A DNA stretch of 64,000 bases from Candidatus Aldehydirespiratoraceae bacterium (GCA_965198315.1 OZ240616.1:391096-455095), one strand, 5' to 3'. Counted from the stretch's first letter, positions 25,469-54,247 are shown. The notes: generated by a model not told the origin, from the sequence alone. Made by a program: numbers and translations.

Positions 25469-25651
25469 GTGGCCACGAACCCCAACACCCGCAAGCGACG
25501 CGTAAAGACCGCCCAGCAACAGCACCACACCCAAGCGGTGTCCAGGTATGAGCAACGCCGCCGTCGCCTCCTTCTCTGGTTGGTCGTGGGTTTGGCTGTG
25601 GCGATGATCCTGCCGCTCGCCGCGGGAATAATGTTCACGCTCTTGAGCTAA
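25469..25651 (+). CDS. possible small basic membrane protein
   Basis: 60 aa with a basic N-terminus plus one TM helix. Weak support. Confidence 0.3.
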   Translation: MATNPNTRKRRVKTAQQQHHTQAVSRYEQRRRRLLLWLVVGLAVAMILPLAAGIMFTLLS

Positions 25652-25714
25652 GAGGCCGAGCGGATTGATCCCGCACACGGCCGCGACCGAACGAGGCCGT
25701 GGCCCGAGCGGCCC

Positions 25715-26716
25715 GTGAACGCAGTGAACAAGAGCGGGAGACAACAGGCCACGGTCCGAAATTGGCGGGACCAGCCGATAGCCTGCGATGCGGTGAGTAC
25801 CGTCAAACGCGCCCGTCAGAAAGCCAACCGAGCCAGCCGCGTCGCCGCGGCGCAGGCAGCCGAAGCGAAAGCCAGAACCCGGCGGCAGACGATCCGCTGG
25901 GGTTCGGGGGTCGCCGTGATCGTGATCCTGATCGTCGGTATCGGATGGTTTCTGAACCGTGGCGATGACGACCCGTTCGACGGTTTTGACCCGGTGGTGA
26001 CGGACACCACGCAGCCCCCGACCGAACCCGAACCTGATCCGGTCGTCACTGAGGCCGTCAGTACGACATCGCCCACGGAGCCGGTGGAGATTTCGGAGCC
26101 GTCCAATCCGGATTGCCCCGCTCCCGACAAGAGCAGCCCTCGTACGCTCGACTTCGGTGGTCCGCAGCCGATGTGTATCAACCCCGTCCACAACTACCAA
26201 GCGGTGTTCGACACCTCCGAAGGCGAGATCGTCATCGACCTCGACACCGAGAACACCCCCAACACGGTCAACAATTTCGTGACCCTCTCCCGTTGGGGAT
26301 ACTACGACGGCACCACTCTGTTCCGAACCGATCCCAGCATCGACATCATTCAGGGCGGCTCGCCCCACACAGATTCAGCCAGCGATCCGGGACCCGGCTA
26401 CACGATCCCCGACGAGCCGACCTTCAATGACGAGGGTGGTTTCCTCACTGGGCCCTACCGGTATGTTCCGGGCCAGTTGGTGATGGCCCGAAGTGGTGGT
26501 CCTGATGCCTCCGGCGCCCAGTTCTTCTTCACGACCGGCCCCAACACCGCTCTGCTCGACGGCCAGGGTACCTACATCGTGTTCGGGCAGACCCACGAAG
26601 CCGGTCTCGGCGTGATGCAAGACATCATCGGCTTGCACCAACCCGACGACAGCGGGCTCGGAGGTCGGCCGTCTCGGACCGTCACTGTCAACTCGGTGAC
26701 GATTCAGGTGGGCTGA
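25715..26716 (+). CDS. membrane-anchored cyclophilin-type peptidyl-prolyl isomerase
   Basis: TM anchor and Pro/Thr/Glu linker, then NNFVTLSRWGYYDGTTLFR and MARSGGPDASGAQFFFT cyclophilin motifs. The start may be downstream of 25715. Confidence 0.85.
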   Translation: MNAVNKSGRQQATVRNWRDQPIACDAVSTVKRARQKANRASRVAAAQAAEAKARTRRQTIRWGSGVAVIVILIVGIGWFLNRGDDDPFDGFDPVVTDTTQPPTEPEPDPVVTEAVSTTSPTEPVEISEPSNPDCPAPDKSSPRTLDFGGPQPMCINPVHNYQAVFDTSEGEIVIDLDTENTPNTVNNFVTLSRWGYYDGTTLFRTDPSIDIIQGGSPHTDSASDPGPGYTIPDEPTFNDEGGFLTGPYRYVPGQLVMARSGGPDASGAQFFFTTGPNTALLDGQGTYIVFGQTHEAGLGVMQDIIGLHQPDDSGLGGRPSRTVTVNSVTIQVG

Positions 26717-27323
26717 TCGGCCACCGCACCCTCGCTTCCACGAACGGGCGGAACGGTGCCGACACGGTCGGCACTTCGAAGCGCTGCAGATCGGTGATCG
26801 TCAGTCCCAGTGCTCGGATCTCCGCCGGCAGGTCCCAGTCGAGGCGTAATCCGCCGACTGCGCGGCCAACACGCCCACCGAGCGCCAGCAGGCGACCGGT
26901 TCGACCGGCCCGTGCCACCGGTTCAAGGAAGAGCAGGCGACCTTCGTCGGCGAGTAGCTCCCTGAGGGTTCGAAGGAAACGATTCAGGTCGGCCACGAGG
27001 GGGGTACGGATCAGGCTGACGATCGTGTCGAAGGGGCCGTGGCCGAGTTCGCTCAGTTCCTCGGGTTCGGCATCGATTCTGGTAACGCCTTGAGGATCGT
27101 GTGCGGGGGTGCCGGCCCTGATGTCGCCCAGGCGATCGAGCATTGTGACCGAATCGACTTCGGTGGCGATCTGATAGCTGTCGAGATGGTCGGACCAACC
27201 GCCCAGGTCGAGGACTCTGCCGCTCGCCACTGAGGCCAGATTGCTCCGGCGTTTGCGCAGCGCGGGCGCCAACTCCATGGGCAACGGGTTCATCCAGGCA
27301 ACGAGAGGGGGGCGGTTCGCCAT
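26688..27323 (-). CDS. class I SAM-dependent methyltransferase (putative)
   Basis: VLDLGGWS glycine-rich motif-I-like segment and ~210 aa length. Moderate support. Confidence 0.55.
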   Translation of the reverse strand: MANRPPLVAWMNPLPMELAPALRKRRSNLASVASGRVLDLGGWSDHLDSYQIATEVDSVTMLDRLGDIRAGTPAHDPQGVTRIDAEPEELSELGHGPFDTIVSLIRTPLVADLNRFLRTLRELLADEGRLLFLEPVARAGRTGRLLALGGRVGRAVGGLRLDWDLPAEIRALGLTITDLQRFEVPTVSAPFRPFVEARVRWPISPPESSPS

Positions 27324-27374
27324 CCGGGCAACCTAGCGCGCCCTAGCCTTGTCCCATGCCTGTCGAACCTGCGC
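27251..27374. repeat. 124-bp direct repeat, copy 1 (left flank of the AbiE islet)
   Basis: Identical to 29489-29612 except one position (27361 t versus 29599 c). Covers the first 73 nt of the methyltransferase gene, the 32-nt divergent intergenic region and the first 19 nt of aat. Confidence 0.95.
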
Positions 27375-27435
27375 TGGACTGATGCATTCACTTCGGGCGA
27401 ACAGGTTCGTAGACCTGACCGGTACGGACAGCGAA

Positions 27436-28563
27436 TCAGAACTCGACGAGGTAGCGGGGGGTGAAGCTCTCGGACTCGATGCTGACTGCGCGGATGCGGT
27501 CGGCGCGGTAGCTGCGTATCTGTTCTCTATCGTTTACGACGAAGACCAGCAGCTTCCCTTCTTGCGAGTAGCGGAGGGAATAGGGCTCGACCGTGCGTAG
27601 CCCGATTCGGCCCTGCTTGGCGTGATAGTCGATGGTGACCTTGAGACGGTTCGCTCCAGCGAATCGTATGAGCTCGATCGGCGAGCCCTGTTGCCATGAG
27701 GTCATGTGCCGGGCTGGCCGCCAGCCAGTGACTGGCTCCGTCGGCCGGATCTCCGTCAACTGCGGCACGGGTCGGTCCCCGTCCAGCCAAGCGAACACAT
27801 CGTCGAGTTGGGACCAGAAGTCGTCAAAGCTCGGCAGGTGAGGCAGTTGGTGGCCGAGCATGTTCGACCACTCGGTCTCGATCTCGTCCCTGAACGGAGT
27901 AGAGCGGATCGTGGCAAGCGTCGGAGTGTCGATGCGTGCGTGGGCACACTTCGCCTCGAGGACCTGCACCACGTCGTCGGCGCGACCGATCAGGTCCGGA
28001 TGACGATGGGTGTGGACGACGTCGTAGAGGTCGCGGGGACGGCAGCGCTCAGCGAGTGCTCTGATCTTCTCTCCCAGGAGTTCTGGCAGCGAGTAGCAGA
28101 CCACACTGGTGAGGTGACTGGTGGCAGAGCTCGCTGGTGCGTCGCTGAACGGGTGTTGCACGGGTCGTGACTCCAAGCCTCGCACGATGGCTTCATCGGC
28201 CGTGAGGTCGAGCTTGACCTTGGGTGGCGTGGGCATGCCTAGCGGCCCGAGGCAGCCGACCCGTCCTTCGATCGTCGGTTTGCCTCGCTTGTTCTGGCGC
28301 TGTCGGAACGAGCCGTCGTCCACGATCAGCCGTAGCCCGCACCTGTCATCCAGCCATGCGGCGATCTCCGCGAACGTCTCTCCCAATCGTCCGACATCGA
28401 GATCGGATTCTGTGACAGTGAAGTCGAGGTCCTCAGAGAACCGGTAGGTCTCGAACCAGCACTTCCGAAGACATGTCCCGCCCTTGAACACCCAGGACCG
28501 CGTCTGCGGGTGCTCCGCGATGCCGGCAAGGAGCCAGCCAAGTACGTAGTCCTTCTCGACCAC
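27436..28563 (-). CDS. AbiEii/AbiGii-family nucleotidyltransferase toxin with C-terminal WYL-like domain
   Basis: MVEKDYVLGWLL...FKGGTCLRKC...YRFSEDLDF N-terminal NTase motifs. The C-terminal ~90 aa (ELIRFAGANRLKVTIDYHAKQGRIGLRTVEPYSLRYSQEGKLLVFVVNDREQIRSYRADRI) looks like a WYL domain. Confidence 0.85.
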   Translation of the reverse strand: MVEKDYVLGWLLAGIAEHPQTRSWVFKGGTCLRKCWFETYRFSEDLDFTVTESDLDVGRLGETFAEIAAWLDDRCGLRLIVDDGSFRQRQNKRGKPTIEGRVGCLGPLGMPTPPKVKLDLTADEAIVRGLESRPVQHPFSDAPASSATSHLTSVVCYSLPELLGEKIRALAERCRPRDLYDVVHTHRHPDLIGRADDVVQVLEAKCAHARIDTPTLATIRSTPFRDEIETEWSNMLGHQLPHLPSFDDFWSQLDDVFAWLDGDRPVPQLTEIRPTEPVTGWRPARHMTSWQQGSPIELIRFAGANRLKVTIDYHAKQGRIGLRTVEPYSLRYSQEGKLLVFVVNDREQIRSYRADRIRAVSIESESFTPRYLVEF

Positions 28564-28616
28564 ATGGTGAGCAAGTTGCTACTCACCTGCGAAGTTGGCG
28601 ATCTCTCGATTGGTGA

Positions 28617-29414
28617 TCACGCCGACACATCTGCGTTGATCCGCAGGCCCCACCGAGCCGACCGCGTGCCTCCCGAGGGCAGCGACGGGTCGAGCAGCGG
28701 AAACCCTGAGGTCAAAGGCCGAACAATCGCCCTAGTGTCGTGTCCCAGCACTTCCAGGAGATACCCGAGCCTCTTGATTGCCGCTCCGTTGTCCAGTCGT
28801 TCAAGGGCACCCACCAGATCCTCGAGCCTCCCAACCGAGAGCAGCGTGTCAAGGACCTCCATCGTGTGACGGATGCCGCCACCCAGTACTGGGTCCGACA
28901 GCATGTCGGCAACCGTGCGTTCCCGGCTAGACACTTTGACCTTCCGGTCACCCCGCCACTCCCCAACGAGTCCCCACTCGAAGCGGTCGATGTTGACATG
29001 ATGGACCAGATAGCTGGCACCAGCCAGCTTCTGATCAACTCGGCGCACCCGTTGTGCGGTGGAAACGACCGTAGAGCGAAAAACTTGGTCGGTGAGCGCC
29101 CAGTGATTCGCAGCCGACCACCCGGCGATGTAGCACGGATCCCACACCAAGTCCGCCAGATACCAGGGGTCCTCCTTCCAGGTCGCCGGATCCCGCGCGT
29201 CCACCGGAACTGCGATGTACAGACCCCGTCGGACACGCCTCAGCCACCCCCTCGATGCCCAAGCCGACAACCGCCGCGCAGCAGACTCGCGACTTACCCC
29301 CAACGCCGTGGCCGCAGCATCCACCGTGACTGTCCGCTGTCCCGCCCCGAACAACGTGGCAAGATCACGCCGACCCCGCGCTGACAATCCTCCCGGCTCG
29401 ATGCTCGGACTCAT
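28617..29414 (-). CDS. AbiEi-family antitoxin/transcriptional regulator
   Basis: N-terminal wHTH (VTVDAAATALGVSRESAARRLSAWASRGWLRRVRRGLY), 265 aa, located directly upstream of AbiEii. Confidence 0.8.
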   Translation of the reverse strand: MSPSIEPGGLSARGRRDLATLFGAGQRTVTVDAAATALGVSRESAARRLSAWASRGWLRRVRRGLYIAVPVDARDPATWKEDPWYLADLVWDPCYIAGWSAANHWALTDQVFRSTVVSTAQRVRRVDQKLAGASYLVHHVNIDRFEWGLVGEWRGDRKVKVSSRERTVADMLSDPVLGGGIRHTMEVLDTLLSVGRLEDLVGALERLDNGAAIKRLGYLLEVLGHDTRAIVRPLTSGFPLLDPSLPSGGTRSARWGLRINADVSA

Positions 29415-29488
29415 GCAGACATCCTAAGTCCAATACTTACGGCTTGAGTGGAATAACTGGCTTTGCGTTGTCATTTCGGGTCTGCTCA

Positions 29489-29612
29489 GTTTGCGCAGCG
29501 CGGGCGCCAACTCCATGGGCAACGGGTTCATCCAGGCAACGAGAGGGGGGCGGTTCGCCATCCGGGCAACCTAGCGCGCCCTAGCCTTGTCCCATGCCCG
29601 TCGAACCTGCGC
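29489..29612. repeat. 124-bp direct repeat, copy 2 (right flank of the AbiE islet)
   Basis: See copy 1. Contains a dead 73-nt methyltransferase 5' fragment and the live aat start. Confidence 0.95.
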
Positions 29613-30265
29613 CATGTTCGTGGAGCTTTCCGCCTGTCGAGAGCGCGGAGCCCTCTGGGTTGGTCGGGGTCGGTGCCGATCTGGAACCGGAAACGATCTT
29701 GGCTGCCTACAGGTCTGCGATGTTCCCGATGCCGATACAGGCTGACGGGTTGATCGGCTGGTGGTCGCCGGATCCACGAGGGGTTCTCGAACTCGGTTCA
29801 CTGCATGTGAGCCGTTCCCTGCGGCGCTCGGCTCGCCGATTCGAGATTCGCATCAACAGTTCGCTGCCTGCGGTTATTGATGCTTGTGCCAACTCAGGTC
29901 GGCCCCATGATTGGATCGATGCGCAGATCCGCGATGCCTATGTTCGGCTCGGCTCTCTGGGCTGGGTTCACAGCGTCGAGACCTGGCTGGACGGGGAATT
30001 GGTCGGTGGTATGTACGGCGTTGCTGTCGGTGGTTTGTTTGCAGGCGAGTCGATGTTTCACCGCGTCACGGATGCTTCCAAGGTTGCACTGGTGGCGCTC
30101 GTGGATCTCTTGGGTGACGGTCAGCGACGGCTGGTTGATGTGCAGTGGATGACGCCTCATCTCGCAACGCTCGGGGTTGTCGAGTGGCCTCGCACCCATT
30201 ATCTCGATGTCTTAGGTGAGCTGTTGGCGAGCCCTCTTCCAGAGCCGTTCCAGCATCCTGGTTAG
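29594..30265 (+). CDS. aat: leucyl/phenylalanyl-tRNA--protein transferase
   Basis: ILAAYRSAMFPM, WWSPDPRGVL and GGLFAGESMF motifs. Confidence 0.9.
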   Translation: MPVEPAPCSWSFPPVESAEPSGLVGVGADLEPETILAAYRSAMFPMPIQADGLIGWWSPDPRGVLELGSLHVSRSLRRSARRFEIRINSSLPAVIDACANSGRPHDWIDAQIRDAYVRLGSLGWVHSVETWLDGELVGGMYGVAVGGLFAGESMFHRVTDASKVALVALVDLLGDGQRRLVDVQWMTPHLATLGVVEWPRTHYLDVLGELLASPLPEPFQHPG

Positions 30266-30445
30266 CGCACACGCTGATTGACCGCGTCCAAGATGTCGAC
30301 AAACACGGTTAGGACATGCGAAAGCCCGGCCACTCACCGTCTGGAGAGGTACCGGGCTTCACTTCCAAGGACTAGTGCGGAGCGCGAGCCTTACCCGAAC
30401 TGTTGGCGAGCCCTCTTCCAGAGGCCTTCCAGTATCCTGGTTAGC
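30218..30445. repeat. 49-bp imperfect direct repeat pair duplicating the aat 3' end, enclosing a 130-bp insert
   Basis: 30218-30266 versus 30397-30445 show 4 mismatches. The insert contains the stem aagcccgg (30322-30329) / ccgggctt (30352-30359). Confidence 0.85.
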
Positions 30446-30446
30446 T

Positions 30447-30531
30447 GGAGGGATGGCAGAGCGGACGATTGCACTGGTCTTGAAAACCAGCGGGCTTCAC
30501 GGCCCCGGGGGTTCGAATCCCCCTCCCTCCG
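30447..30531 (+). tRNA. tRNA-Ser (anticodon TGA)
   Basis: Hand-folded. Acceptor ggaggga/tccctcc, anticodon stem ctggt/accag with loop cttgaaa, long variable arm, T arm ggggg-ttcgaat-ccccc. Confidence 0.85.
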
Positions 30532-30538
30532 CAATGTG

Positions 30539-31792
30539 ATGTGTCAAGACATAGGAAAGGTGTGAACCTGCGCGGGGCGGGGTTTTTTAGGGTTGGTTTT
30601 GGGGTTGGTAGTCGCGGTTGGGGTTGAGGGTTAGGTGTCGGAGGAGTTCGCCGGTTTGGGTTGCGATGACTCTGATGTCGAGATCGGCGACGAGGAGGGT
30701 TACGGGGGTGTGTTTGTGGGCTCTGCCGATGCCGATGTGGTGGAGTCGGCTGTTGTGGCGGAGTGTGACGGAGCCTGTTTTGTCGATGCGGTCGTGTCGG
30801 ACTCTGAAGTGGATGTCGGCACCGTTGTGTTCAGGACCGGTTTTGGGGAGACGCTGGTAGGCGGCGGCTGGGGTGGTGCGGCCGAGGCTGCGGTGGGGGC
30901 GGTTGTGGTTGTAATGGCGGGTGAATTCGTCGATGAGGCCTTGGAGCTGGTCGAGGCTGTGGGCAGCGGGTTGGGCGGTTAGCCATTTTTTGAGGGTTTG
31001 TTGGAAGCGTTCGACTTTGCCGCAGGTGGTTGGGTGGTTGGGTGTGGAGTTCTTCTGTTCGATGTCTAGGGCTACGAGGCGGGCCTCGAAGGCGTTTCTG
31101 CCTCCTTTGCCGCCCGAGAAGCGGGTGGTGTAGACCATGGCGTTGTCGGTGAGCGTGGACGCGGGAACGCCGTGGTCAGCACACGTTTGGTTGAAGGTGT
31201 CAACCACGATCGGGCCGGTGATACGCCGATGGACGGTGACCGACAGTGCGTAGCGGGAATGGTCGTCTAGCCAGGTGATGATCTCGACCTCGGCACCTGT
31301 GGCGAGCCGCCAGTGACAGAAGTCTGACTGCCACATCTGGTTGGGCAGATCGGCGGCGAAGCGGACATAGGACGACTTCGGGCGTTTCTTCGCGTTGGAC
31401 TCCACCAGACCCAGATCGACGAGGCGGCGCCGGACCGTCGAGGGCGACACGGTGATCTGGTGACGCTGTTGAAGGTGCCAGCAGACGGTGTGCGGGCCGG
31501 CGTCGAGGCCTCGGGAGGACAGCTCTGAGCGTAGGTTCACCACCAACTCGACTATCTCGTCACAGACCTTGGATGGTGAGCTACCGGGACGCCGCGACCG
31601 GTCTTGGAAAGCCGTGTCGCCCTCAGCACGCCAGCGGGCCACAAGCTTGCAGACCCAACCCTCAGACACCCCATAGAGCCTGGCCGTTTGGGCCTGGGTC
31701 CGACCCTCCAACACCACCGACAAGACAACCGATCGACGTTTCGACATGCCCCAACATCAGCCGACCAGACCCTTTCCTATGTCTTGACACAT
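30539..31792. mobile_element. IS481-family insertion sequence (1254 bp)
   Basis: Perfect 22-bp terminal inverted repeats: atgtgtcaagacataggaaagg at 30539-30560 and its reverse complement at 31771-31792. They enclose one transposase gene. Confidence 0.85.
30587..31747 (-). CDS. IS481-family transposase (DDE/rve integrase core)
   Basis: N-terminal HTH (RTQAQTARLYGVSEGWVCKLVARW), rve-core pattern (WQSDFCHW...DDHSRY...TDNAMVY) and C-terminal YNHNRPHRSLG. Confidence 0.9.
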   Translation of the reverse strand: MSKRRSVVLSVVLEGRTQAQTARLYGVSEGWVCKLVARWRAEGDTAFQDRSRRPGSSPSKVCDEIVELVVNLRSELSSRGLDAGPHTVCWHLQQRHQITVSPSTVRRRLVDLGLVESNAKKRPKSSYVRFAADLPNQMWQSDFCHWRLATGAEVEIITWLDDHSRYALSVTVHRRITGPIVVDTFNQTCADHGVPASTLTDNAMVYTTRFSGGKGGRNAFEARLVALDIEQKNSTPNHPTTCGKVERFQQTLKKWLTAQPAAHSLDQLQGLIDEFTRHYNHNRPHRSLGRTTPAAAYQRLPKTGPEHNGADIHFRVRHDRIDKTGSVTLRHNSRLHHIGIGRAHKHTPVTLLVADLDIRVIATQTGELLRHLTLNPNRDYQPQNQP

Positions 31793-32560
31793 ACCTTTCC
31801 TATGTCCTGAACCACAACACCTCCAGCTCCGCAAATGTGATGTGTCAAGACATGTGCTGAGCATCCCCCCTTTGGCCGGACACCTCGATTAGGAGGTAAG
31901 CCCCGAGAAGGCTACCCAACAACGTGACAGGGGTCTATATTGTCACGTCTATGGCTGGTTCGTGTCCAGGTCGTGATTCAAGTTCAATGGTTGGGTTGAG
32001 CCGTGTCTGGTTGAGCCTCGGGTGTGGATGTCGGCCAAGGGGAGTGTATGTTCCCACCAGGTGGCGCATTTAGACGTTTGGGAGCACAGCCCCCAACCGG
32101 AAGGCCTTCCGCAAGTGCGGCTCTCTTGAGCGTCGGAGGCGTCGGAGTCAATGGCTTTTTCAATGTCGGTCCCGGTCATTGCCTCCAGGATGGTGTAGTG
32201 GTCGATTTGGACGCCATGGAGGCTGGGGAGTCCCCCCTCTGTACCGGGGACCTCCTTCAGATTCGGTGTTCGCTCAACCCTGATTCTGGAGGCCCCCACC
32301 CCTGTCACCGAGGACTCAGTGCCTGCTTAAATCCGAAGAGCCGACTTACGACTTGTTGATGAGTGATATACGATTTGCTTATGAAGTTCAGCATGTTGAT
32401 GAAGTTCAGTAACCGCGCTCATAGGGCGGTGCACGACGCCGCCAACTCTGACACCGGCCGTGCCGCGCCGGAGACCCCTTTACCTTGTTGGTGGCCCTGG
32501 TGTGGCAATGTCGGGGTTGGTTGCTCGCTGCGGTGGGTAGGACTGTAGTCCCCTGTCATT

Positions 32561-34890: not shown

Positions 34891-36591
34891 ATGACCCGGC
34901 ACGGAGCTGGCCGTCGAGCTTTTGACACAAATCGGGTCGTTGGTCGGTTAGCCTGCGACTCGACCGGCACTCGGAGGTTCAAATTGGGTTCGCTGAATTC
35001 TCTAGGCCTGGAGCGCAGTTGCGGCTCTTGGCGTCTTGCGACTCGACATTTTCTCTTGGTGGCCTTGTTGGTAATTGCGGCTTGCGCTTCTGGAGACGAG
35101 GGCACTCCAGACCTGGGTTCGAACAGTTCTGTCGAAAACGACGAAGCCGCTCAGTCGGGCACGACCGCATCCGAGAAAGTCCAGGGATCAACAGACGCCG
35201 ACGATCGGATCGAACCGTCCGAGCGCGATTGTTCACCTCATATCCCCGACGATCTTCGCTTGTCCCAACCCTCTCCAACGGCTGCCAGCATCGAGATATC
35301 ACAGGCCACCTATGACTGCGCCCACGAGGTCGGTCTTGCGTTCGCCACCGACCCTGCCGCGATCTCCACGCTTCAGTCTCAGGGGATTCAGGGGCCGCTG
35401 CTATTCGTCGATCGTCAATTTGATGTTCCTCTGATGGACGAGCTCGGGCGTCTCGCTCCAGAGAAGATCATTGCTGTAGGAATCGACGACCGGCACCTTG
35501 ACGACGAACTGGCCGACTTCGTCTCCGAATCGGTAACTGTCGATCAGCAGGCAGAACTATTGCCTCAAGGTGGGTCTTATGACCGCGTCTGGCTCGTCGA
35601 CAACTACACCGAGGCTGTGCCGCTGGCGGTTCTCGGCAACCAAATCGGTGTCAGGGTGATCACTGTGCCTGGAGACCTCCGAGCCGCATCTGTCGAGGAA
35701 CGGGAGATGATCGCCGCTGCTTCTGAGGTGGAACTGCTTTCGGACTACGGCGAGGACGCAGCCTGGCAATTGGATGTAATCCGCCGTGGCCCTGAACTAC
35801 CCGGGGGTGGTTTCCTCCTGTTCGATCCAAACCAACCCCGCCGCATGGTTGCCATGTACGGCCATCCACAGACATCAGGGCTCGGAGTGTTGGGAGAACA
35901 GAGTCCCGATAGGAGTATCGAACGCCTCCGCTCCATCGCTCAGGGCTACGACGCTGACGGTTTCGCCGTATTACCCACCTTCGAGATCATCGCCACCGTT
36001 GCCGCGGGCAGCGCCGGCTACGACGGGAACTTCTCCAATGAGACCGCTTTGGACATACTCAGGCCCCTAATCGAGACAGCGGCCGCTAACGACTTCTATG
36101 TGGTCTTGGATCTTCAGCCGGGACTATCCGACTATCTCTCGCAGGCAAAGATCTACGAGGAGTTCCTGCGCCTCCCTCATGTGGGGCTGGCATTGGATCC
36201 CGAGTGGAGGCTGAAGCCCGGCCAACGTCATCTGCAGCAGATCGGCACGGTCGACGCGGGTGAGATCAACCAGGTTGTCGAGTGGCTGGCCGGGATCGTC
36301 CGTGAAGAAGCACTTCCCCAGAAGCTGCTGGTCCTCCACCAGTTCAAGTTCTCCATGATCACGAACCGTCATCTGGTCGAGACTCCCGCCGAGCTGGCGG
36401 TTCTGGTTCATATGGACGGTCAGGGTCCGCTACCGACCAAGTACAGCTCCTGGAATGCCCTCACCCGCCAGCCCGACGCAGACCAGTTCTATTGGGGTTG
36501 GAAGAACTTCTACGACGAGGACTCCCCCACCGCCACCGCTGCTCAAGTGTTGGCCCTGACCCCCACCCCCCTGTTCGTCTCGTACCAGTAA
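34891..36591 (+). CDS. hypothetical secreted/lipoprotein (LLVIAAC lipobox-like)
   Basis: Long ORF with good codon structure and a hydrophobic segment HFLLVALLVIAACASG. The start codon is uncertain, since ATG 34891 lies ~50 aa upstream of the signal-like segment. Family not recognised. Confidence 0.6.
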   Translation: MTRHGAGRRAFDTNRVVGRLACDSTGTRRFKLGSLNSLGLERSCGSWRLATRHFLLVALLVIAACASGDEGTPDLGSNSSVENDEAAQSGTTASEKVQGSTDADDRIEPSERDCSPHIPDDLRLSQPSPTAASIEISQATYDCAHEVGLAFATDPAAISTLQSQGIQGPLLFVDRQFDVPLMDELGRLAPEKIIAVGIDDRHLDDELADFVSESVTVDQQAELLPQGGSYDRVWLVDNYTEAVPLAVLGNQIGVRVITVPGDLRAASVEEREMIAAASEVELLSDYGEDAAWQLDVIRRGPELPGGGFLLFDPNQPRRMVAMYGHPQTSGLGVLGEQSPDRSIERLRSIAQGYDADGFAVLPTFEIIATVAAGSAGYDGNFSNETALDILRPLIETAAANDFYVVLDLQPGLSDYLSQAKIYEEFLRLPHVGLALDPEWRLKPGQRHLQQIGTVDAGEINQVVEWLAGIVREEALPQKLLVLHQFKFSMITNRHLVETPAELAVLVHMDGQGPLPTKYSSWNALTRQPDADQFYWGWKNFYDEDSPTATAAQVLALTPTPLFVSYQ

Positions 36592-36602
36592 CCCGGCCTG
36601 AG
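36528..36602. repeat. 75-bp direct repeat, copy 1 (left flank of the TA islet)
   Basis: Matches 38678-38752 with 3 mismatches. Covers the last ~64 nt of the 34891-36591 gene plus 11 nt after its stop. Confidence 0.9.
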
Positions 36603-36685
36603 CGGACTGTACATTCACTTCATTCTCGCCAGCCATCGAAGGAATACATCAGAGCATCATAAATTTGAGATGCTACGATGTCTGA

Positions 36686-36943
36686 ATGCGAACAACGTTG
36701 ACTCTCGATGATGACTTGGCCGCGGCCCTCAGAGAACACGCCCAACGGGTGGGAGTGCCGTTCAAGCATGTCGTCAACGACACCCTGCGGCGGGGCCTGT
36801 CCCCGGTGCTCGCAAAGACGGAGTCCGATTACAAGATCAGGCCCCACGACAGCGGTTTCAGACCCGGCGTCGATCCGTTGCGGCTGAATCAGCTCAACGA
36901 CTCGCTTGCGGCCGACGACTTCGCTGGTTCGCCGCCACAGTGA
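36686..36943 (+). CDS. type II antitoxin, VapB-like
   Basis: MRTTLTLDDDLAAALREHA N-terminus typical of antitoxins paired with PIN toxins. 4-nt overlap with the PIN gene. Confidence 0.75.
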   Translation: MRTTLTLDDDLAAALREHAQRVGVPFKHVVNDTLRRGLSPVLAKTESDYKIRPHDSGFRPGVDPLRLNQLNDSLAADDFAGSPPQ

Positions 36944-37365
36944 TTGTCCCGGACCTGAACCTGCTCGTCTACGCCCACAGCACCGGCGCGCCACTGCACG
37001 ATCCGGCCCGGCAATGGTGGGAGGATCTGGTGAACGGAACCGAACGAGTCGGGGTTCCGTGGCTGGTGGCGGCAGGTTTCGTGCGACTGCTCACCCACCC
37101 CAGGGTCATGAACACCCCAGCGGATCCGGCGCACGCCGTTGACCTCATGGCCCAATGGTTCAACTCACCCACCGTTTCACCGCTGAACCCGGGCCCCCAG
37201 CACATCGCGCTCTTGCGCAACATGCTGGCTGCCGCCGGCACAGGAGGAGACCTCGTCACCGACGCCCACATCGCCGCGTTGGCCGTTGAGCACCAAGCAG
37301 AGGTCCACTCCAACGACAGCGACTTCACACGCTTCCCCGGGCTGAGCTGGCGCAACCCGCTCTGA
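36940..37365 (+). CDS. vapC: PIN-domain ribonuclease toxin VapC
   Basis: MIVPDLNLLVYA (first acidic residue), TDAHIAALA and SNDSDF motifs. Confidence 0.85.
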   Translation: MIVPDLNLLVYAHSTGAPLHDPARQWWEDLVNGTERVGVPWLVAAGFVRLLTHPRVMNTPADPAHAVDLMAQWFNSPTVSPLNPGPQHIALLRNMLAAAGTGGDLVTDAHIAALAVEHQAEVHSNDSDFTRFPGLSWRNPL

Positions 37366-37416
37366 GTTCACCCAACGTCAAGCGAATTCTTCGGCAAAAA
37401 CAGTGTTGTTGGTCGG

Positions 37417-37686
37417 TTAGAGGTAGGAGTCGAGGGCGTCTCGGATGACTTGGCTCTCGGTGGTCTTGTCGGAAGCTGCCCGCTGCTTGATCCGGCTCTT
37501 GTAGCTGTGGGGAGCGCGGAATGTGTACACCTCGGCCCGTGTCTCTCCGATTCTCGGTGAGCGGCGGCGCGTCCGCTTGATCTTGGCGAGCTCGTCGGGT
37601 GTGAACTCGCGCCCCTCGAAGTCCGTGGCGATGGCCTCTGTCTCATCGCCGGTCAAGGTCTTGTCGGTCTTAGTCTCGTTGCTCAT
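37417..37686 (-). CDS. putative antitoxin (RHH-like C-terminus)
   Basis: ATG 37686 overlaps the upstream gene stop (ATGA). The C-terminal YKSRIKQRAASDKTTESQVIRDALDSYL resembles CopG/RHH antitoxins. Confidence 0.55.
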   Translation of the reverse strand: MSNETKTDKTLTGDETEAIATDFEGREFTPDELAKIKRTRRRSPRIGETRAEVYTFRAPHSYKSRIKQRAASDKTTESQVIRDALDSYL

Positions 37687-37934
37687 GGTCGCTCCCCGGT
37701 GAGGTAGGTGCGGAATACTGGGCGCAGTGGCATCGCGTGAACGACCAAGTCCTGTTCTGCTGCCTGGAGGTACAGGAGTTCGAGTAGGTTGCCCGCACGG
37801 TCGGGACCGATGCACAGGCTTTTGGTCGGTTCATGTTCGCTGTCGATGTCATAGAAGCCCATGGCGTGTTGCCATGCATGCCGGATGTCCTCGTCGGTCA
37901 ACCCGTGCCGGTAGGCCGACTCAAATATCTGCAC
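37683..37934 (-). CDS. small toxin-like protein of a conserved actinobacterial TA family
   Basis: 83 aa. The pattern AYRHGLTDEDIRHA...IGPDRAGNLLELLYL...VVHAMPLRP recurs in small actinobacterial proteins paired with RHH partners. Family name not recalled with certainty. Confidence 0.5.
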   Translation of the reverse strand: MQIFESAYRHGLTDEDIRHAWQHAMGFYDIDSEHEPTKSLCIGPDRAGNLLELLYLQAAEQDLVVHAMPLRPVFRTYLTGERP

Positions 37935-38025
37935 CGCTTAAGCGTAACACGTTTAAGGGTGGCTTGAGTCCGCGGACCTCGTCTGGGAGGACGCTGTTGG
38001 TGTTCTGTCTTGTTTTCTGTACAGT

Positions 38026-38304
38026 TTGAGTATGACCGCCAACATCACCACCAGTTCCAGCAGCTACACAGCGCCATTGACTGATGCCCGTAGTCGCCTG
38101 AGCGAGATCGTCGACGAGGTCGAGTCCACCGGGGCCGAATTCATCATCACCAAGCACGGCCGCCCAGCAGCTGTGATCGTGGGGCACGAAGACTACGAGT
38201 CGCTGATTGAGACGCTCAACATCCTTGCGGACAGCGACACCGTGGCCGCTATCGCCGAAGCTGAGGCTGACCTCGCTGCCGGCGATCTCGTTCCCCTCGA
38301 TTGA
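38026..38304 (+). CDS. Phd/YefM-family antitoxin
   Basis: LTDARSRLSEIVDEVESTGAEFIITKHGRPAAVIVGHEDYESLIETL is a classic Phd/YefM fold signature. Confidence 0.85.
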   Translation: MSMTANITTSSSSYTAPLTDARSRLSEIVDEVESTGAEFIITKHGRPAAVIVGHEDYESLIETLNILADSDTVAAIAEAEADLAAGDLVPLD

Positions 38305-38311
38305 TCAAATC

Positions 38312-38554
38312 GTGCCCAAACTGACCGCCAGAGCTAAAAGAGACCTGGATGGGTTACCCCCGGCGCTCTCGCAGAAAGCGCGTGAGCTCATCAGACGACT
38401 CGACGACGAGCCTGGACTCGGCAAAAAACTCAAGGGCCAACTACGGGACAAGCGCTCCGCGCGCCTAGGACGCTCTCATCGCATCATCTACACAGCGCGA
38501 CACGGTGACATTGTCGTGCTCACGATCGGTGCCAGGAAGGACATCTACCGTTGA
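38312..38554 (+). CDS. RelE/ParE-family toxin
   Basis: GTG 38312. A..DLDGLP....A..L...L...P..G..L.G.L.....ARLG.SHRIIY......I.VL.IG.R.D.Y is the RelE/ParE pattern. Confidence 0.75.
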   Translation: MPKLTARAKRDLDGLPPALSQKARELIRRLDDEPGLGKKLKGQLRDKRSARLGRSHRIIYTARHGDIVVLTIGARKDIYR

Positions 38555-38677
38555 TGGGATTCGAACTACCATCGAATAAGAAGGAGCGCTAGCTATGCCC
38601 GGGCTGTGACGTCCGCCAGCGCACCGTCGGCCCATGGCACTTGAGTAGACCGATCAGAGGACGAGGATCGCCGTCAG

Positions 38678-38752
38678 CACCGGCACCGCTGCTCAAGTGT
38701 TGGCCCTGACCCCCAACCCGCTGTTCGTCTCGTACCAGTAACCCGGCCTGAG
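38678..38752. repeat. 75-bp direct repeat, copy 2 (right flank of the TA islet)
   Basis: See copy 1. This is a dead duplicate of the upstream gene's 3' end. Confidence 0.9.
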
Positions 38753-52861: not shown

Positions 52862-53800
52862 ATGAGCGAAACCGAAGCCTCCGAGTGGCAGCAGCGCATC
52901 ACCGGTGAATGGTACGGCCTGCCGTCGGTTTTCGATGCCGACGGAAGCCACACAGGGTTCAACAAGGTCAGTCGGGCCAGCGTGTTCGCCGACGGCAAGG
53001 TCACCTATTGGATGCAGTGCAACTTCATGAACACCGGACCGTTGCGCAACCGCTTCGAGATCCGCGATTTCGAGTTCGGCGTGGACGATCAGGGCAACGA
53101 CCGCATCTATCATGGCCCCGACTTCTACGGGGCAGGCCACCCCTACGGTTCGCTGGTGGATTCGCACTATTACGCACCGGGTTGGCGGGCCGATCTCAAC
53201 ACCATGAACCAGATCCTCCCCGACGGAGTGACTCAGGTGTACTCGTCTCTGCTGTATGAAGGACCGACCATCTTTGCGGTGTTCAACGGGGTGTATCTCA
53301 ACGCCCACGACTACGACACCAATGCCGACACCAAAGAATGGATCGACACCCACATCGAGGCCGAACGCGAGCTGGCCTCATGGCCCCACACCGTGCCCGA
53401 CCGGATCGGCGGTGAATGGACCGGGCAATGCGAGGTGTTCGGGGCCGATCAACAACGTCGGGGCACAGTGGATGTGCGCTTGCGCAACGACCCCATCGAC
53501 TTGGTGTGCGCCAACTGCACTCTGGACATGTCCGGGACCATCGACCGGTCTCTGAGCTACATCCGCACCCGCTCTGGTGGCAACCGTTACACCTACGACG
53601 GCCCCGATTTCTGGGGCAACGCCATCGCTTACGGTCGGGCGCTGTACACGACCCAGCATCATGCGAGCGAGGCGTTCAAGATCAAAGGGCGGGAGTTCAT
53701 CCTTGACCGCAACTACACGCTGGCTGTGGCCTGGAAGCTCTACTCCGGCGACCGCATGACCGACATCGTGTTCGGCCCCCTCAACTGGTCATCCGACTAA
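52862..53800 (+). CDS. two-module GxWxG beta-barrel-like protein (DUF3598/nitrobindin/lipocalin-like, tentative)
   Basis: Two internal modules each open with the signature ITGEWYGLPSVFDADG / IGGEWTGQCEVFGADQ. 27 nt after RCCR-like 2. Confidence 0.55.
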   Translation: MSETEASEWQQRITGEWYGLPSVFDADGSHTGFNKVSRASVFADGKVTYWMQCNFMNTGPLRNRFEIRDFEFGVDDQGNDRIYHGPDFYGAGHPYGSLVDSHYYAPGWRADLNTMNQILPDGVTQVYSSLLYEGPTIFAVFNGVYLNAHDYDTNADTKEWIDTHIEAERELASWPHTVPDRIGGEWTGQCEVFGADQQRRGTVDVRLRNDPIDLVCANCTLDMSGTIDRSLSYIRTRSGGNRYTYDGPDFWGNAIAYGRALYTTQHHASEAFKIKGREFILDRNYTLAVAWKLYSGDRMTDIVFGPLNWSSD

Positions 53801-53879
53801 CGCGCCAACGGGGTGTTGCCGGTTGGGTTCAACCGATGGCCACCTCTACCAAGGGCCCGAGCGAATAGGTGGTTGTCCA

Positions 53880-54247
53880 GGTCTCCTCTGGTTGAGCCGC
53901 TGACGAACCACCGGGAACCATCATCGGTCCTACCCAACCAAGCAGGACTCAAACCACCGAGAACCATCATCGGTCTGCTCTGGTTGAGCCGCTGACGAAC
54001 CACCGGGAACCATCATCGGTCCTACCCAACCAAGCAGGACTCAAACCACCGAGAACCATCATCGGTCTCCTCTGGCTGGGCCACTGACAAACCACCCGGA
54101 ACCATCATCGGTCCTACCCAACCAAGCAGGACTCAAACCACCGAGAACCATCATCGGTCTCCTCCGGCTGGGCCACTGACAAACCACCCGGAACCACCAT
54201 CGGTCCTACCCAACCAAGCAGGACTCAAACCACCGAGAACCATCATC
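53880..54247. repeat. 4 x 92-bp tandem repeat (each unit is two 46-bp half-units)
   Basis: Units start at 53880, 53972, 54064 and 54156. Each half-unit ends in aaccaccgRgaaccatcatc. The period is not a multiple of 3. The array lies downstream of the DUF222-HNH gene. Confidence 0.95.

Follow-up and report, generated by a model that had tools for sequence, protein, structure and literature searches.

A 64,000-nt stretch of DNA from a Candidatus Aldehydirespiratoraceae bacterium (hereafter the window, with positions counted from its first letter) carries the abortive-infection operon abiEi-abiEii as an insert between two copies of a 124-nt direct repeat, at a site where several relatives have a single copy of the repeat and no insert. 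The explanation that we favor, and which we consider probable, is that this AbiE cassette arose by a recombinase-independent, microhomology-guided insertion with long target duplication, that the product was kept because the duplication rebuilt a divergent promoter, and that the insert was spread by homologous recombination and its repeats homogenized by gene conversion.

The two repeat copies, found by a repeat search of the window (Table 1), are 99% identical with a start-to-start spacing of 2238; their sole mismatch is T at 27367 versus C at 29605, and the alignment shows that identity ends abruptly at both edges. Each copy takes in 73 nt from the start of a methyltransferase gene (designated MT), a 32-nt intergenic region and 19 nt from the start of aat. 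MT (start at 27323, minus strand) and aat (start at 29594) are each complete, and the dead 5′ fragments, 29489–29561 of MT and 27356–27374 of aat, are on the side of the insert; the MT fragment opens a 45-aa open reading frame (ORF; 29424–29561, minus strand). The gene content of the segment between the copies is abiEi and abiEii only, and its last ~11 nt read …GGGTCTGCTCA. Repeat, domain and GC scans of this segment detected no terminal inverted repeats, transposase, integrase or GC anomaly, and no RNA family was found at the junctions, the Rfam match being tRNA-Ser only. The initial annotation, which was made from the sequence alone, had described the two genes between 124-bp repeats differing at one base, the coverage of the divergent promoter region and both gene starts by the repeat, the intact flanking genes with dead fragments inside, and an insert devoid of an integrase; our coordinates and gene calls reproduce each of these points. 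Its view that classical transposition was not at work was also borne out, and a DDE transposon or insertion sequence (IS) was rejected on the lack of terminal inverted repeats, of a transposase and of a 2–15-bp target duplication.

The insertion was examined in relatives, labelled L081–L091, and in sequencing runs, labelled X1–X13; identities are DNA identities to the window. The window lineage belongs to uncultured Acidimicrobiia, and its best aat relatives are 'Ca. Aldehydirespiratoraceae' and Poriferisodalis-type metagenome-assembled genomes. Exact-protein look-ups for the window aat, MT and AbiEi products gave no match, and the relatives were reached through homologue searches and context look-ups. 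L081 (about 95%) and L085 (about 94%) have the same insert, with junctions identical to those of the window. The empty site with a single 124-nt copy, predicted by the initial annotation, is present in L086 and L087 (92–93%), L090 (about 91%), L089 (about 86%) and L088 (84–86%), where aat and MT stand back to back across a 32-nt intergenic region, and also in contig 2545640 of run X13 (joint 27361>29600, 2238 nt skipped). At the read level, for which Logan unitigs were used, unitigs of X1 and X3 span both junctions with zero mismatches, and in X1–X3 the filled strain is accompanied by a second one, of similar depth and apparently empty, whose sole path is MT > repeat > aat. A run search found no PacBio run containing the locus. 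The initial annotation had asked whether all relatives carry the duplicated arrangement or whether it is an artefact, and neither is the case: because unitigs cross both junctions and two independent assemblies (L081 and L085) share the architecture, we conclude that this is a genuine insertion polymorphism and not an assembly artefact. The filled state is limited to the window's nearest relatives, and the empty state is found in closer and more distant strains. When the window AbiE proteins were used in tblastn against 80 more distant Acidimicrobiia and actinobacterial loci, no AbiE was found near aat, and the PPIase-(MT)-aat gene order (PPIase, peptidyl-prolyl isomerase) was conserved across the same loci. 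A GTDB genome scan with aat returned distant relatives only (at most 72%), none of them close enough to serve as an empty-site comparison.

The junction sequences point to a single origin. In the window, L081 and L085, the left joint reads …CCTGCGC/TGGACTGATGC… and the right joint …CTGCTCA/GTTTGCGC… (the slash marks the joint). The aat 5′ allele of L081 and L085 themselves is different, …GTGGACCCACCTCG… (…CCCACCTCG), and their dead left copies still end at the joint with …CCCTGCGC. Since the dead copies keep this ending despite the other aat allele, the insertion was a single event, in a genome whose aat allele resembled that of the window or of L088. The synonymous divergence (dS) between the window and L081/L085 was 0.081 for abiEii and 0.053–0.058 for abiEi, compared with 0.23–0.27 for MT and 0.22–0.23 for aat; by this measure the insert unit is 3–4 times younger than its flanking alleles. 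Two histories account for this, transfer of the unit from one diverged strain to another or replacement of the flanks around it, and in both the breakpoints lie in or beside the repeats. The repeat copies of L081 and L085 are mosaics, and the point inside the repeats at which recipient-like sequence switches to donor-like sequence differs between L081_L and L085_L. Such differing switch points fit homologous recombination or gene conversion, and not a fixed attachment-site (att) core. The two substitutions specific to the window, in CCATGGGC and AACGAGAGG, occur in its left and right copies alike, and the number of mismatches between copies within a genome (1 in the window, 7 in L081 and 3 in L085) compares with 6–11 between window copies and L081/L085 copies. 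This pattern is one of concerted evolution.

One could envisage that the window strain was itself a recipient, having gained the insert by Campbell-type integration of a circle that carried the insert and one repeat copy, or by a double crossover with imported DNA. The cassette that is 3–4 times younger than its flanks and the mosaic copies of L081 and L085 agree with this idea, and 124-bp direct repeats are adequate substrates for RecA-mediated recombination. However, it merely shifts the question of origin to another strain, and the window aat allele (…GAACCTGCGCC…) is the one that agrees with the junction sequence, so the event may have occurred in the window lineage. We regard a recipient window strain as possible, if somewhat unlikely; it is compatible with, and not opposed to, the spread step of the explanation that we favor. 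The initial annotation had suggested att-type or Campbell-type integration, and the latter half of this suggestion remains plausible, as does a double crossover, for the spread of the unit, but not for the origin of the duplication; the att-type half is not supported by the arms, terminus and core evidence described below.

The window contains a sister insertion, TA3, in which a 75-nt sequence was duplicated around a cluster of toxin-antitoxin (TA) genes: a ribbon-helix-helix antitoxin with VapC-PIN (VapBC), an unclassified gene pair, and Phd with a ParE/RelE toxin. The empty site is seen in L090, where the homologue (602 aa) of a 566-aa gene converges with an isochorismatase gene and one 75-nt copy is present. 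The TA3 insert starts with CGGACTG-TACATTCACTTC and the AbiE insert with TGGACTGATGCATTCACTTC; these starts are homologous (36603–36621 in TA3) and have the same starting nucleotide. The pattern GGACTGN{1,4}CATTCACTTC occurs twice in the 64 kb, versus 0 occurrences expected from shuffles, and each occurrence lies 1 nt inside the left end of an insert. The TA3 left end (36595–36639) translates in frame to GLSGLYIHFILASHR, which matches residues 161–175 of an Eco57I-family N6-methyltransferase in L089 (93% over 15 aa; 41 nt of DNA at 92.7%). The L089 gene, hereafter the M gene, is paired with an RE_XamI-domain gene and so forms part of a restriction-modification (RM) unit. The shared terminus is therefore a fragment of an RM methyltransferase ORF, and not an att arm or a transposon end. 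Neither the M-gene relic nor the repeat core was detected in scans of JGI metagenomes (0 hits each), and viral contigs scanned for the relic likewise gave 0 hits. A search for terminal inverted repeats or for a motif common to the right ends of the AbiE and TA3 inserts returned a single weak match (CTTGAGTRGA, 10/11); since other AbiE loci do not conserve it, we rejected it as a shared right-end motif and took it as chance.

Microhomology was detected at the joints of both inserts. At the AbiE left joint the target has CCTGCGC versus CCTGAGC in the M gene, and at the right joint the insert has …CTGCTC(A) versus CTGCTC(CGGC) in the target. At the TA3 left joint the target has GGCCTGAG versus GG(G/C)(T/C)TGAG in the M gene, a microhomology of (GGCC)TGAG, and at the right joint GACGAGGA is found on both sides. 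The patchwork of a 20-nt relic followed by a 31-nt filler at the AbiE left end would, by analogy, be typical of multi-step template switching or of later remodelling. At the TA3 site, sequencing runs show turnover of the cargo, with alternative joints at 37365>38786 and 37420>38719.

The relic raises the possibility that an RM unit came first: a XamI-like restriction (R) gene and an Eco57I-family M gene would have invaded both sites with long duplication, perhaps via breaks made by the unit's own nuclease, a route that has been proposed for RM systems, and later deletions and replacement by AbiE or TA genes would have left the M relic behind. The presence of the relic at the left end of both inserts is in agreement with this order of events, as are the visible turnover of cargo at the TA3 site and the literature, which ties this mode of insertion to RM systems. 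Moreover, an intact RM unit with a related M gene in L089 abuts the 3′ end of the 566-aa-gene homologue (563 aa), only a few nt from the position of the TA3 junction. In both inserts, however, the relic starts in the middle of the ORF (at about aa 161–164) exactly at the junction with the duplicated target, which means either that the M gene was truncated before joining or that separate deletions in the two inserts stopped at one and the same M position. A search of the window for an R-gene relic was negative. We consider it unlikely that RM units were the original inserts. As a separate observation, L088 carries at 2021–2057 a 37–40-nt copy (about 87%) of the MT-aat intergenic promoter and the first three aat codons, upstream of a Phd-like gene; it adjoins an RM unit (N6_Mtase/Eco57I and RE_XamI) and may be a captured promoter or baggage of an earlier MT-aat insertion.

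Self-BLAST of 92 loci (1.23 Mb) detected long direct repeats only in the window's close relatives, besides an internal repeat in the hsdS region of L091; in this sample, long duplication is clade- or locus-specific. In L081 (3129–7605), a 4.3-kb insertion with an HNH/DUF222 gene, an AAA_15 ATPase gene and small ORFs lies between the converging MT and PPIase genes. The duplication at its borders measures 79 nt (98.7% identical), an inner partial copy spans 348 nt, and the L081 MT has had its last ~8 codons replaced; the window represents the empty state. At the 3′ end of the window aat, a 56-nt duplication (30211–30266 and 30390–30445, 88% identical) surrounds a 123-bp segment (30267–30389) that holds a tRNA-Ser-like fragment, and in L085 the same segment is located 290 bp downstream of tRNA-Ser. 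The functional copy of this duplication is the odd allele, and the dead copy beside tRNA-Ser resembles the aat of other strains; the arrangement may represent a replacement gene end brought in by an element, or the scar of an island. In L087 (359–5346), a 4.9-kb island between aat and tRNA-Ser is accompanied by 50-nt copies of the aat 3′ end that are 92% identical. Its genes are BilA–D (a ubiquitin-like defence system), a helix-turn-helix (HTH)/Peptidase_M78 gene and a DUF3368 gene, with a degenerate tRNA-Ser 5′ fragment at the left end and a RelE 3′ remnant, homologous to window 38531–38606, at the right end. Other strains have aat abutting tRNA-Ser. The duplications thus measure 124 nt (AbiE), 75 nt (TA3), 79 nt (L081) and 50–56 nt (aat 3′ end), and the duplicated sequences are unrelated.

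The same AbiE operon, with 86–87% DNA identity, is present in at least four other places (L082, L083/L084 and L091), next to a peptidase gene in L082, SIR2-HerA genes in L083/L084 and a type I RM system in L091. Homology to these copies extends from about 27426/27438 to 29460/29480, that is, from no more than 10 nt past the abiEii stop to 45–65 nt upstream of abiEi. The searches found no flanking long repeats and no MT- or aat-like sequence around the cassette in L082, L083/L084 or L091, and the idea that the cassette always makes long duplications was rejected on the basis of these contexts. Because the other contexts are devoid of arms or repeats, the 124 nt are a local target sequence and not an attP brought in by the cassette. 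An integron gene cassette was rejected as well, since the sequence downstream of abiEii differs completely between contexts from ~10 nt past the stop and no conserved imperfect palindrome was seen by inspection, a formal attC model not having been applied. In the window, L081 and L085, the segment enclosed by the 124-bp repeats encodes no recombinase, and the MT-aat site of L081 and L085–L090 is free of integrase-bearing elements. The only integrase-fold genes seen were IS481-type rve transposase genes downstream of aat (window 30587–31747, L087 and L090). We found no core common to both junctions and no fixed crossover point. Att-type site-specific integration is not supported, because the arms are absent elsewhere, the terminus is a methyltransferase ORF, the second insert duplicates an unrelated 75-bp target and the switch points vary.

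This evidence also bears on a variant of att-type integration in which a non-autonomous element, similar to a cis-mobilizable element (CIME) or a satellite, carries its own 117–124-bp copy and is integrated by a tyrosine or serine recombinase encoded elsewhere. Such an element would account for the terminal motif shared by the inserts and for the similar CCTG[A/C]G at the joint of both targets; the aat 3′ duplication downstream does resemble an element-borne replacement end, and the visible sequence is 64 kb of a ~4.15-Mb contig, so a trans-acting recombinase could lie elsewhere. But the shared motif is a methyltransferase ORF fragment, the duplicated targets (124, 75 and 79 nt) resemble one another in neither sequence nor length, the junctions have no common core, the switch points vary between strains, and neither the interior of the repeats nor the MT-aat site of L081 and L085–L090 provided a recombinase or an integrase-bearing element; nor does the cassette have such arms in other contexts. 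A CIME-like origin is thus highly unlikely. That the filled arrangement is ancestral, with empty alleles produced by repeat-mediated deletion, or that the duplication is an assembly artefact, is scarcely credible, since direct repeats would permit precise excision but the empty state reaches the distant L088 and L089 as well as closer strains, the 80 distant loci have no AbiE near aat, the cassette dS is below the flank dS, and the junction-crossing unitigs and two independent assemblies exclude an artefact.

The favored explanation, a microhomology-guided insertion that is independent of any recombinase, would proceed as follows. Illegitimate recombination, guided by microhomology and requiring no element-encoded recombinase, would have placed a foreign fragment whose left end lay inside an Eco57I-family M gene in the 5′ end of aat, either by template switching during replication or by end-joining of breaks 124 bp apart, for example on sister chromosomes. 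In both routes, the stretch between the two joints would end up on both sides of the insert. Selection would then keep this rare product, as only an insertion that duplicates the whole divergent module would leave both genes expressed. After the strains had diverged, insert and repeats would be exchanged among them by homologous recombination, the crossovers falling within or close to the repeats; the DNA would enter either in linear form, by a double crossover, or as an excised circle, by Campbell integration. Gene conversion would keep the two copies in each genome alike.

The retention step was deduced from the layout of the promoter region. The two start codons are 32 nt apart, and a TANNNT box, read by eye, lies 6 nt upstream of each ATG (TAGCCT for aat and TAGGTT, on the other strand, for MT). 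Leaderless mRNAs and TANNNT −10 boxes are abundant in Actinobacteria. Because of this abundance and the position of the boxes, both transcripts are probably leaderless, with each −35 region located in the first codons of the other gene. A simple insertion here would disable a gene and duplication of the whole module would not, which could explain why the product survived. The duplicated MT promoter is predicted to point into abiEi, and the duplicated aat promoter would be directed antisense into the 3′ end of abiEii.

Several observations weigh against this explanation. The comparisons establish the structure, the polymorphism of filled and empty alleles, one origin, the M relic, the sister event, the younger age of the cassette and the concerted evolution of the repeats; we infer the enzymology of the origin step and the promoter logic of retention, and no enzyme or intermediate was observed. 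A scan for sigma-70 consensus promoters found nothing, the promoter argument being one of sequence inspection. The microhomologies are 4–8 nt long, not all of them perfect, and two are displaced by a small patch, so that some could be due to chance. Random illegitimate recombination would predict less precision than is seen in the two inserts, which both begin at exactly the same nucleotide of the relic; a defined donor end, or a site that is recognised, may be involved. Junctions were also remodelled after insertion, as the TA3 insert of other strains is missing 38 nt of relic sequence. To these may be added the room that the visible sequence leaves for a trans-acting recombinase.

The cargo belongs, by its sequence, to the type IV TA/abortive-infection operons of the arrangement abiEi-abiEii-WYL: an AbiEi with a winged helix-turn-helix AbiEi_4 domain and an AbiEi_1 domain is followed by an AbiEii of the DUF1814 nucleotidyltransferase family. 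The AbiEii of the relatives has 394 aa, starting at ~28620 in window terms and overlapping the abiEi stop. In the window, a TGG>TAG nonsense mutation that the initial annotation had missed is present at codon 14 of the 394-aa frame of the relatives (CTA on the plus strand, 28579–28581), so the toxin reading frame is interrupted, and the remaining ORF encodes 375 aa from a downstream GTG. L081 and L085 have an intact gene, and C at 28580 (T>C), which restores TGG, is found in runs X6, X7, X10 and X13. The window toxin may be decaying, or it may be made as a 375-aa protein from the downstream GTG.

Table 1. Coordinates of the AbiE insertion, its target and cargo, and the sister insertion TA3 in the window.
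Feature	Coordinates	Strand	Description
Left 124-nt copy	27251–27374		Functional MT 5′ end and promoter region, 32-nt intergenic region, dead 19-nt aat fragment (27356–27374)
Right 124-nt copy	29489–29612		Dead 73-nt MT fragment (29489–29561), intergenic region, functional aat 5′ end
Inserted segment	27375–29488	minus	2114 bp; missing from empty alleles L086–L090
Insert left terminus	27375–27394	plus	TGGACTGATGCATTCACTTC; Eco57I-family N6-methyltransferase ORF relic, motif GLY[V/I]HF
Filler	27395–27425		31 nt of unknown origin, between relic and start of homology to other AbiE loci
abiEii, nucleotidyltransferase toxin fused to C-terminal WYL domain	27436–28563	minus	Pfam PF08843 E=2.6e-37; PADLOC AbiEii E=2.9e-126
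abiEi, antitoxin/transcriptional regulator	28617–29414	minus	AbiEi_4 N-terminal and AbiEi_1 C-terminal domains; PADLOC E=1.5e-67
abiEi upstream (promoter/operator) region	29415–29488	minus	Kept in other AbiE contexts to about 29460–29480
MT, SAM-methyltransferase-like gene	26688–27323	minus	211 aa; weak Methyltransf_23 match; intact
aat, leucyl/phenylalanyl-tRNA-protein transferase	29594–30265	plus	Leu_Phe_trans E=1.3e-59; intact
TA3 sister event	36528–38752		75-nt duplication (36528–36602 and 38678–38752), 96% identical; insert 36603–38677, 2075 bp

Other features were noted around the locus. Directly after tRNA-Ser(TGA) (30447–30532) lies an IS481-family element (30533–31853) with a transposase gene (30587–31747), 22-nt perfect terminal inverted repeats (30539–30560 and 31771–31792) and a 20-nt copy of its left end at 31834–31853, 42 nt past the right inverted repeat. 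Each related strain has a different sequence downstream of aat and tRNA-Ser, with RM, Bil, VapBC or IS genes. Upstream of and overlapping the PPIase start, ~96 nt of the window (25650–25747) are skipped in several related strains (the joints skip 96–98 nt); this sequence is single-copy in the window, has a word depth of up to about 80,000 with many loose ends in X1, X3, X4 and X5, and may represent a short element present in very many copies in these metagenomes. At 53788–54247, an apparently non-coding part of the window contains a tandem array with a 46-nt period and at least 6 in-register copies of a 184-nt unit.

The route by which defence and TA operons without mobility genes reach ordinary chromosomal positions is poorly understood, and the signature described so far is tied to RM systems and their nucleases. 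The same signature is seen here for AbiE and for a cluster of three TA pairs, with filled and empty alleles in natural relatives, with joints that show microhomology and are mapped to the nucleotide, and with an RM-gene relic that was not expected. The locus offers an explanation of how such events survive at a divergent promoter, where a simple insertion would silence a neighbour. It also provides evidence that the duplicated arms afterwards supply the homology by which the unit spreads and remain alike through gene conversion. It also makes the question of mechanism approachable by comparative long-read metagenomics and actinobacterial genetics. We tentatively put forward a broader and rather unlikely reading, in which defence and TA cassettes of a sponge-associated Acidimicrobiia clade would colonise tight gene boundaries, recombinase-free, from a specific DNA end in an RM M gene; the pioneers, opening sites by insertion with long target duplication, would be RM units or DNA that was broken at a defined position within them, and other addiction modules would take these sites over. 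This reading is prompted by the 124-bp and 75-bp events, which have different cargo, start at the same relic nucleotide and have targets that resemble the adjacent CCTGAGC. If true, it would provide a concrete, testable mechanism for a phenomenon that has been without explanation since 2000.

Among known systems, the AbiE type IV systems match the cargo in Pfam and PADLOC family assignments, which are strong, in the order abiEi then abiEii, and in the 4-nt gene overlap of the relatives; the window toxin, known from sequence alone, differs by its C-terminal WYL domain (PDLC02317 subtype) and by the nonsense mutation at codon 14. Phage 21 and e14 in icd, and SXT in prfC, are integrative elements that supply a replacement gene end, and CIMEs are cis-mobilizable and have no integrase. 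The AbiE insertion resembles these elements in that direct repeats of a gene end keep the target gene intact and that the element itself may be devoid of a recombinase. Theirs, however, is a fixed core with an integrase and constant repeats, whereas the repeats of the AbiE insertion are local sequence, and neither an integrase nor a core was found for it. Fork stalling and template switching, microhomology-mediated break-induced replication (FoSTeS/MMBIR) and end-joining capture give rise to templated insertions with target duplication, microhomology at the joints and patches from third templates, and have been described mainly in eukaryotes and in E. coli amplification. The target duplication and joint microhomology are shared features, and the 20-nt relic with its 31-nt filler fits extra patches, although these processes are not known from the acquisition of defence genes in Acidimicrobiia and the link is one of analogy only.

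The closest parallel is insertion with long target duplication, which Nobusato, Uchiyama, Ohashi and Kobayashi reportedly described for RM systems in 2000 (in Gene 259:99). Genome comparison revealed such insertions of RM systems with duplications of 46–423 bp and no mobility genes, in several phyla including an actinobacterium; the mechanism was unknown and possibly tied to DNA breakage (Furuta, Abe & Kobayashi 2010, NAR 38:2428; PMC2853133). Mruk & Kobayashi (2014) also state this mode of insertion for RM systems only (PMC3874152). We found no report in the literature of insertion with long target duplication for TA or Abi cargo. The features that define the class were taken from Furuta et al. 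(PMC2853133). A direct duplication of >30 bp that is single-copy at the orthologous site is seen here (124 nt twice in the window, once in L086–L090 and X13), the insert is <20 kb and carries no mobility genes (2114 bp, abiEi and abiEii), and the length of the duplication varies between events that have unrelated duplicated sequences. R and M homologues in the insert are not seen, the cargo being AbiE with only a 20-nt M relic. The AbiE insertion therefore works like this class and is not a strict member of it, because the insert holds no R and M gene pair. Both are small addiction-type units with a variable-length direct duplication of sequence that is single-copy in a relative, neither has a transposase or integrase, and the duplication often overlaps gene ends. 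The RM insertions differ in that their cargo is RM by definition and a property of RM systems such as DNA breakage has been suggested, whereas the cargo here is AbiE or type II TA and includes no DNA nuclease, an RM methyltransferase being represented only by a 20–41-nt relic at one end. The structure of the insertion thus has a precedent; what is new is the TA/Abi cargo, the RM-gene relic shared by two independent insertions, the mapping of their empty sites, and the evidence that the unit spread and underwent gene conversion.

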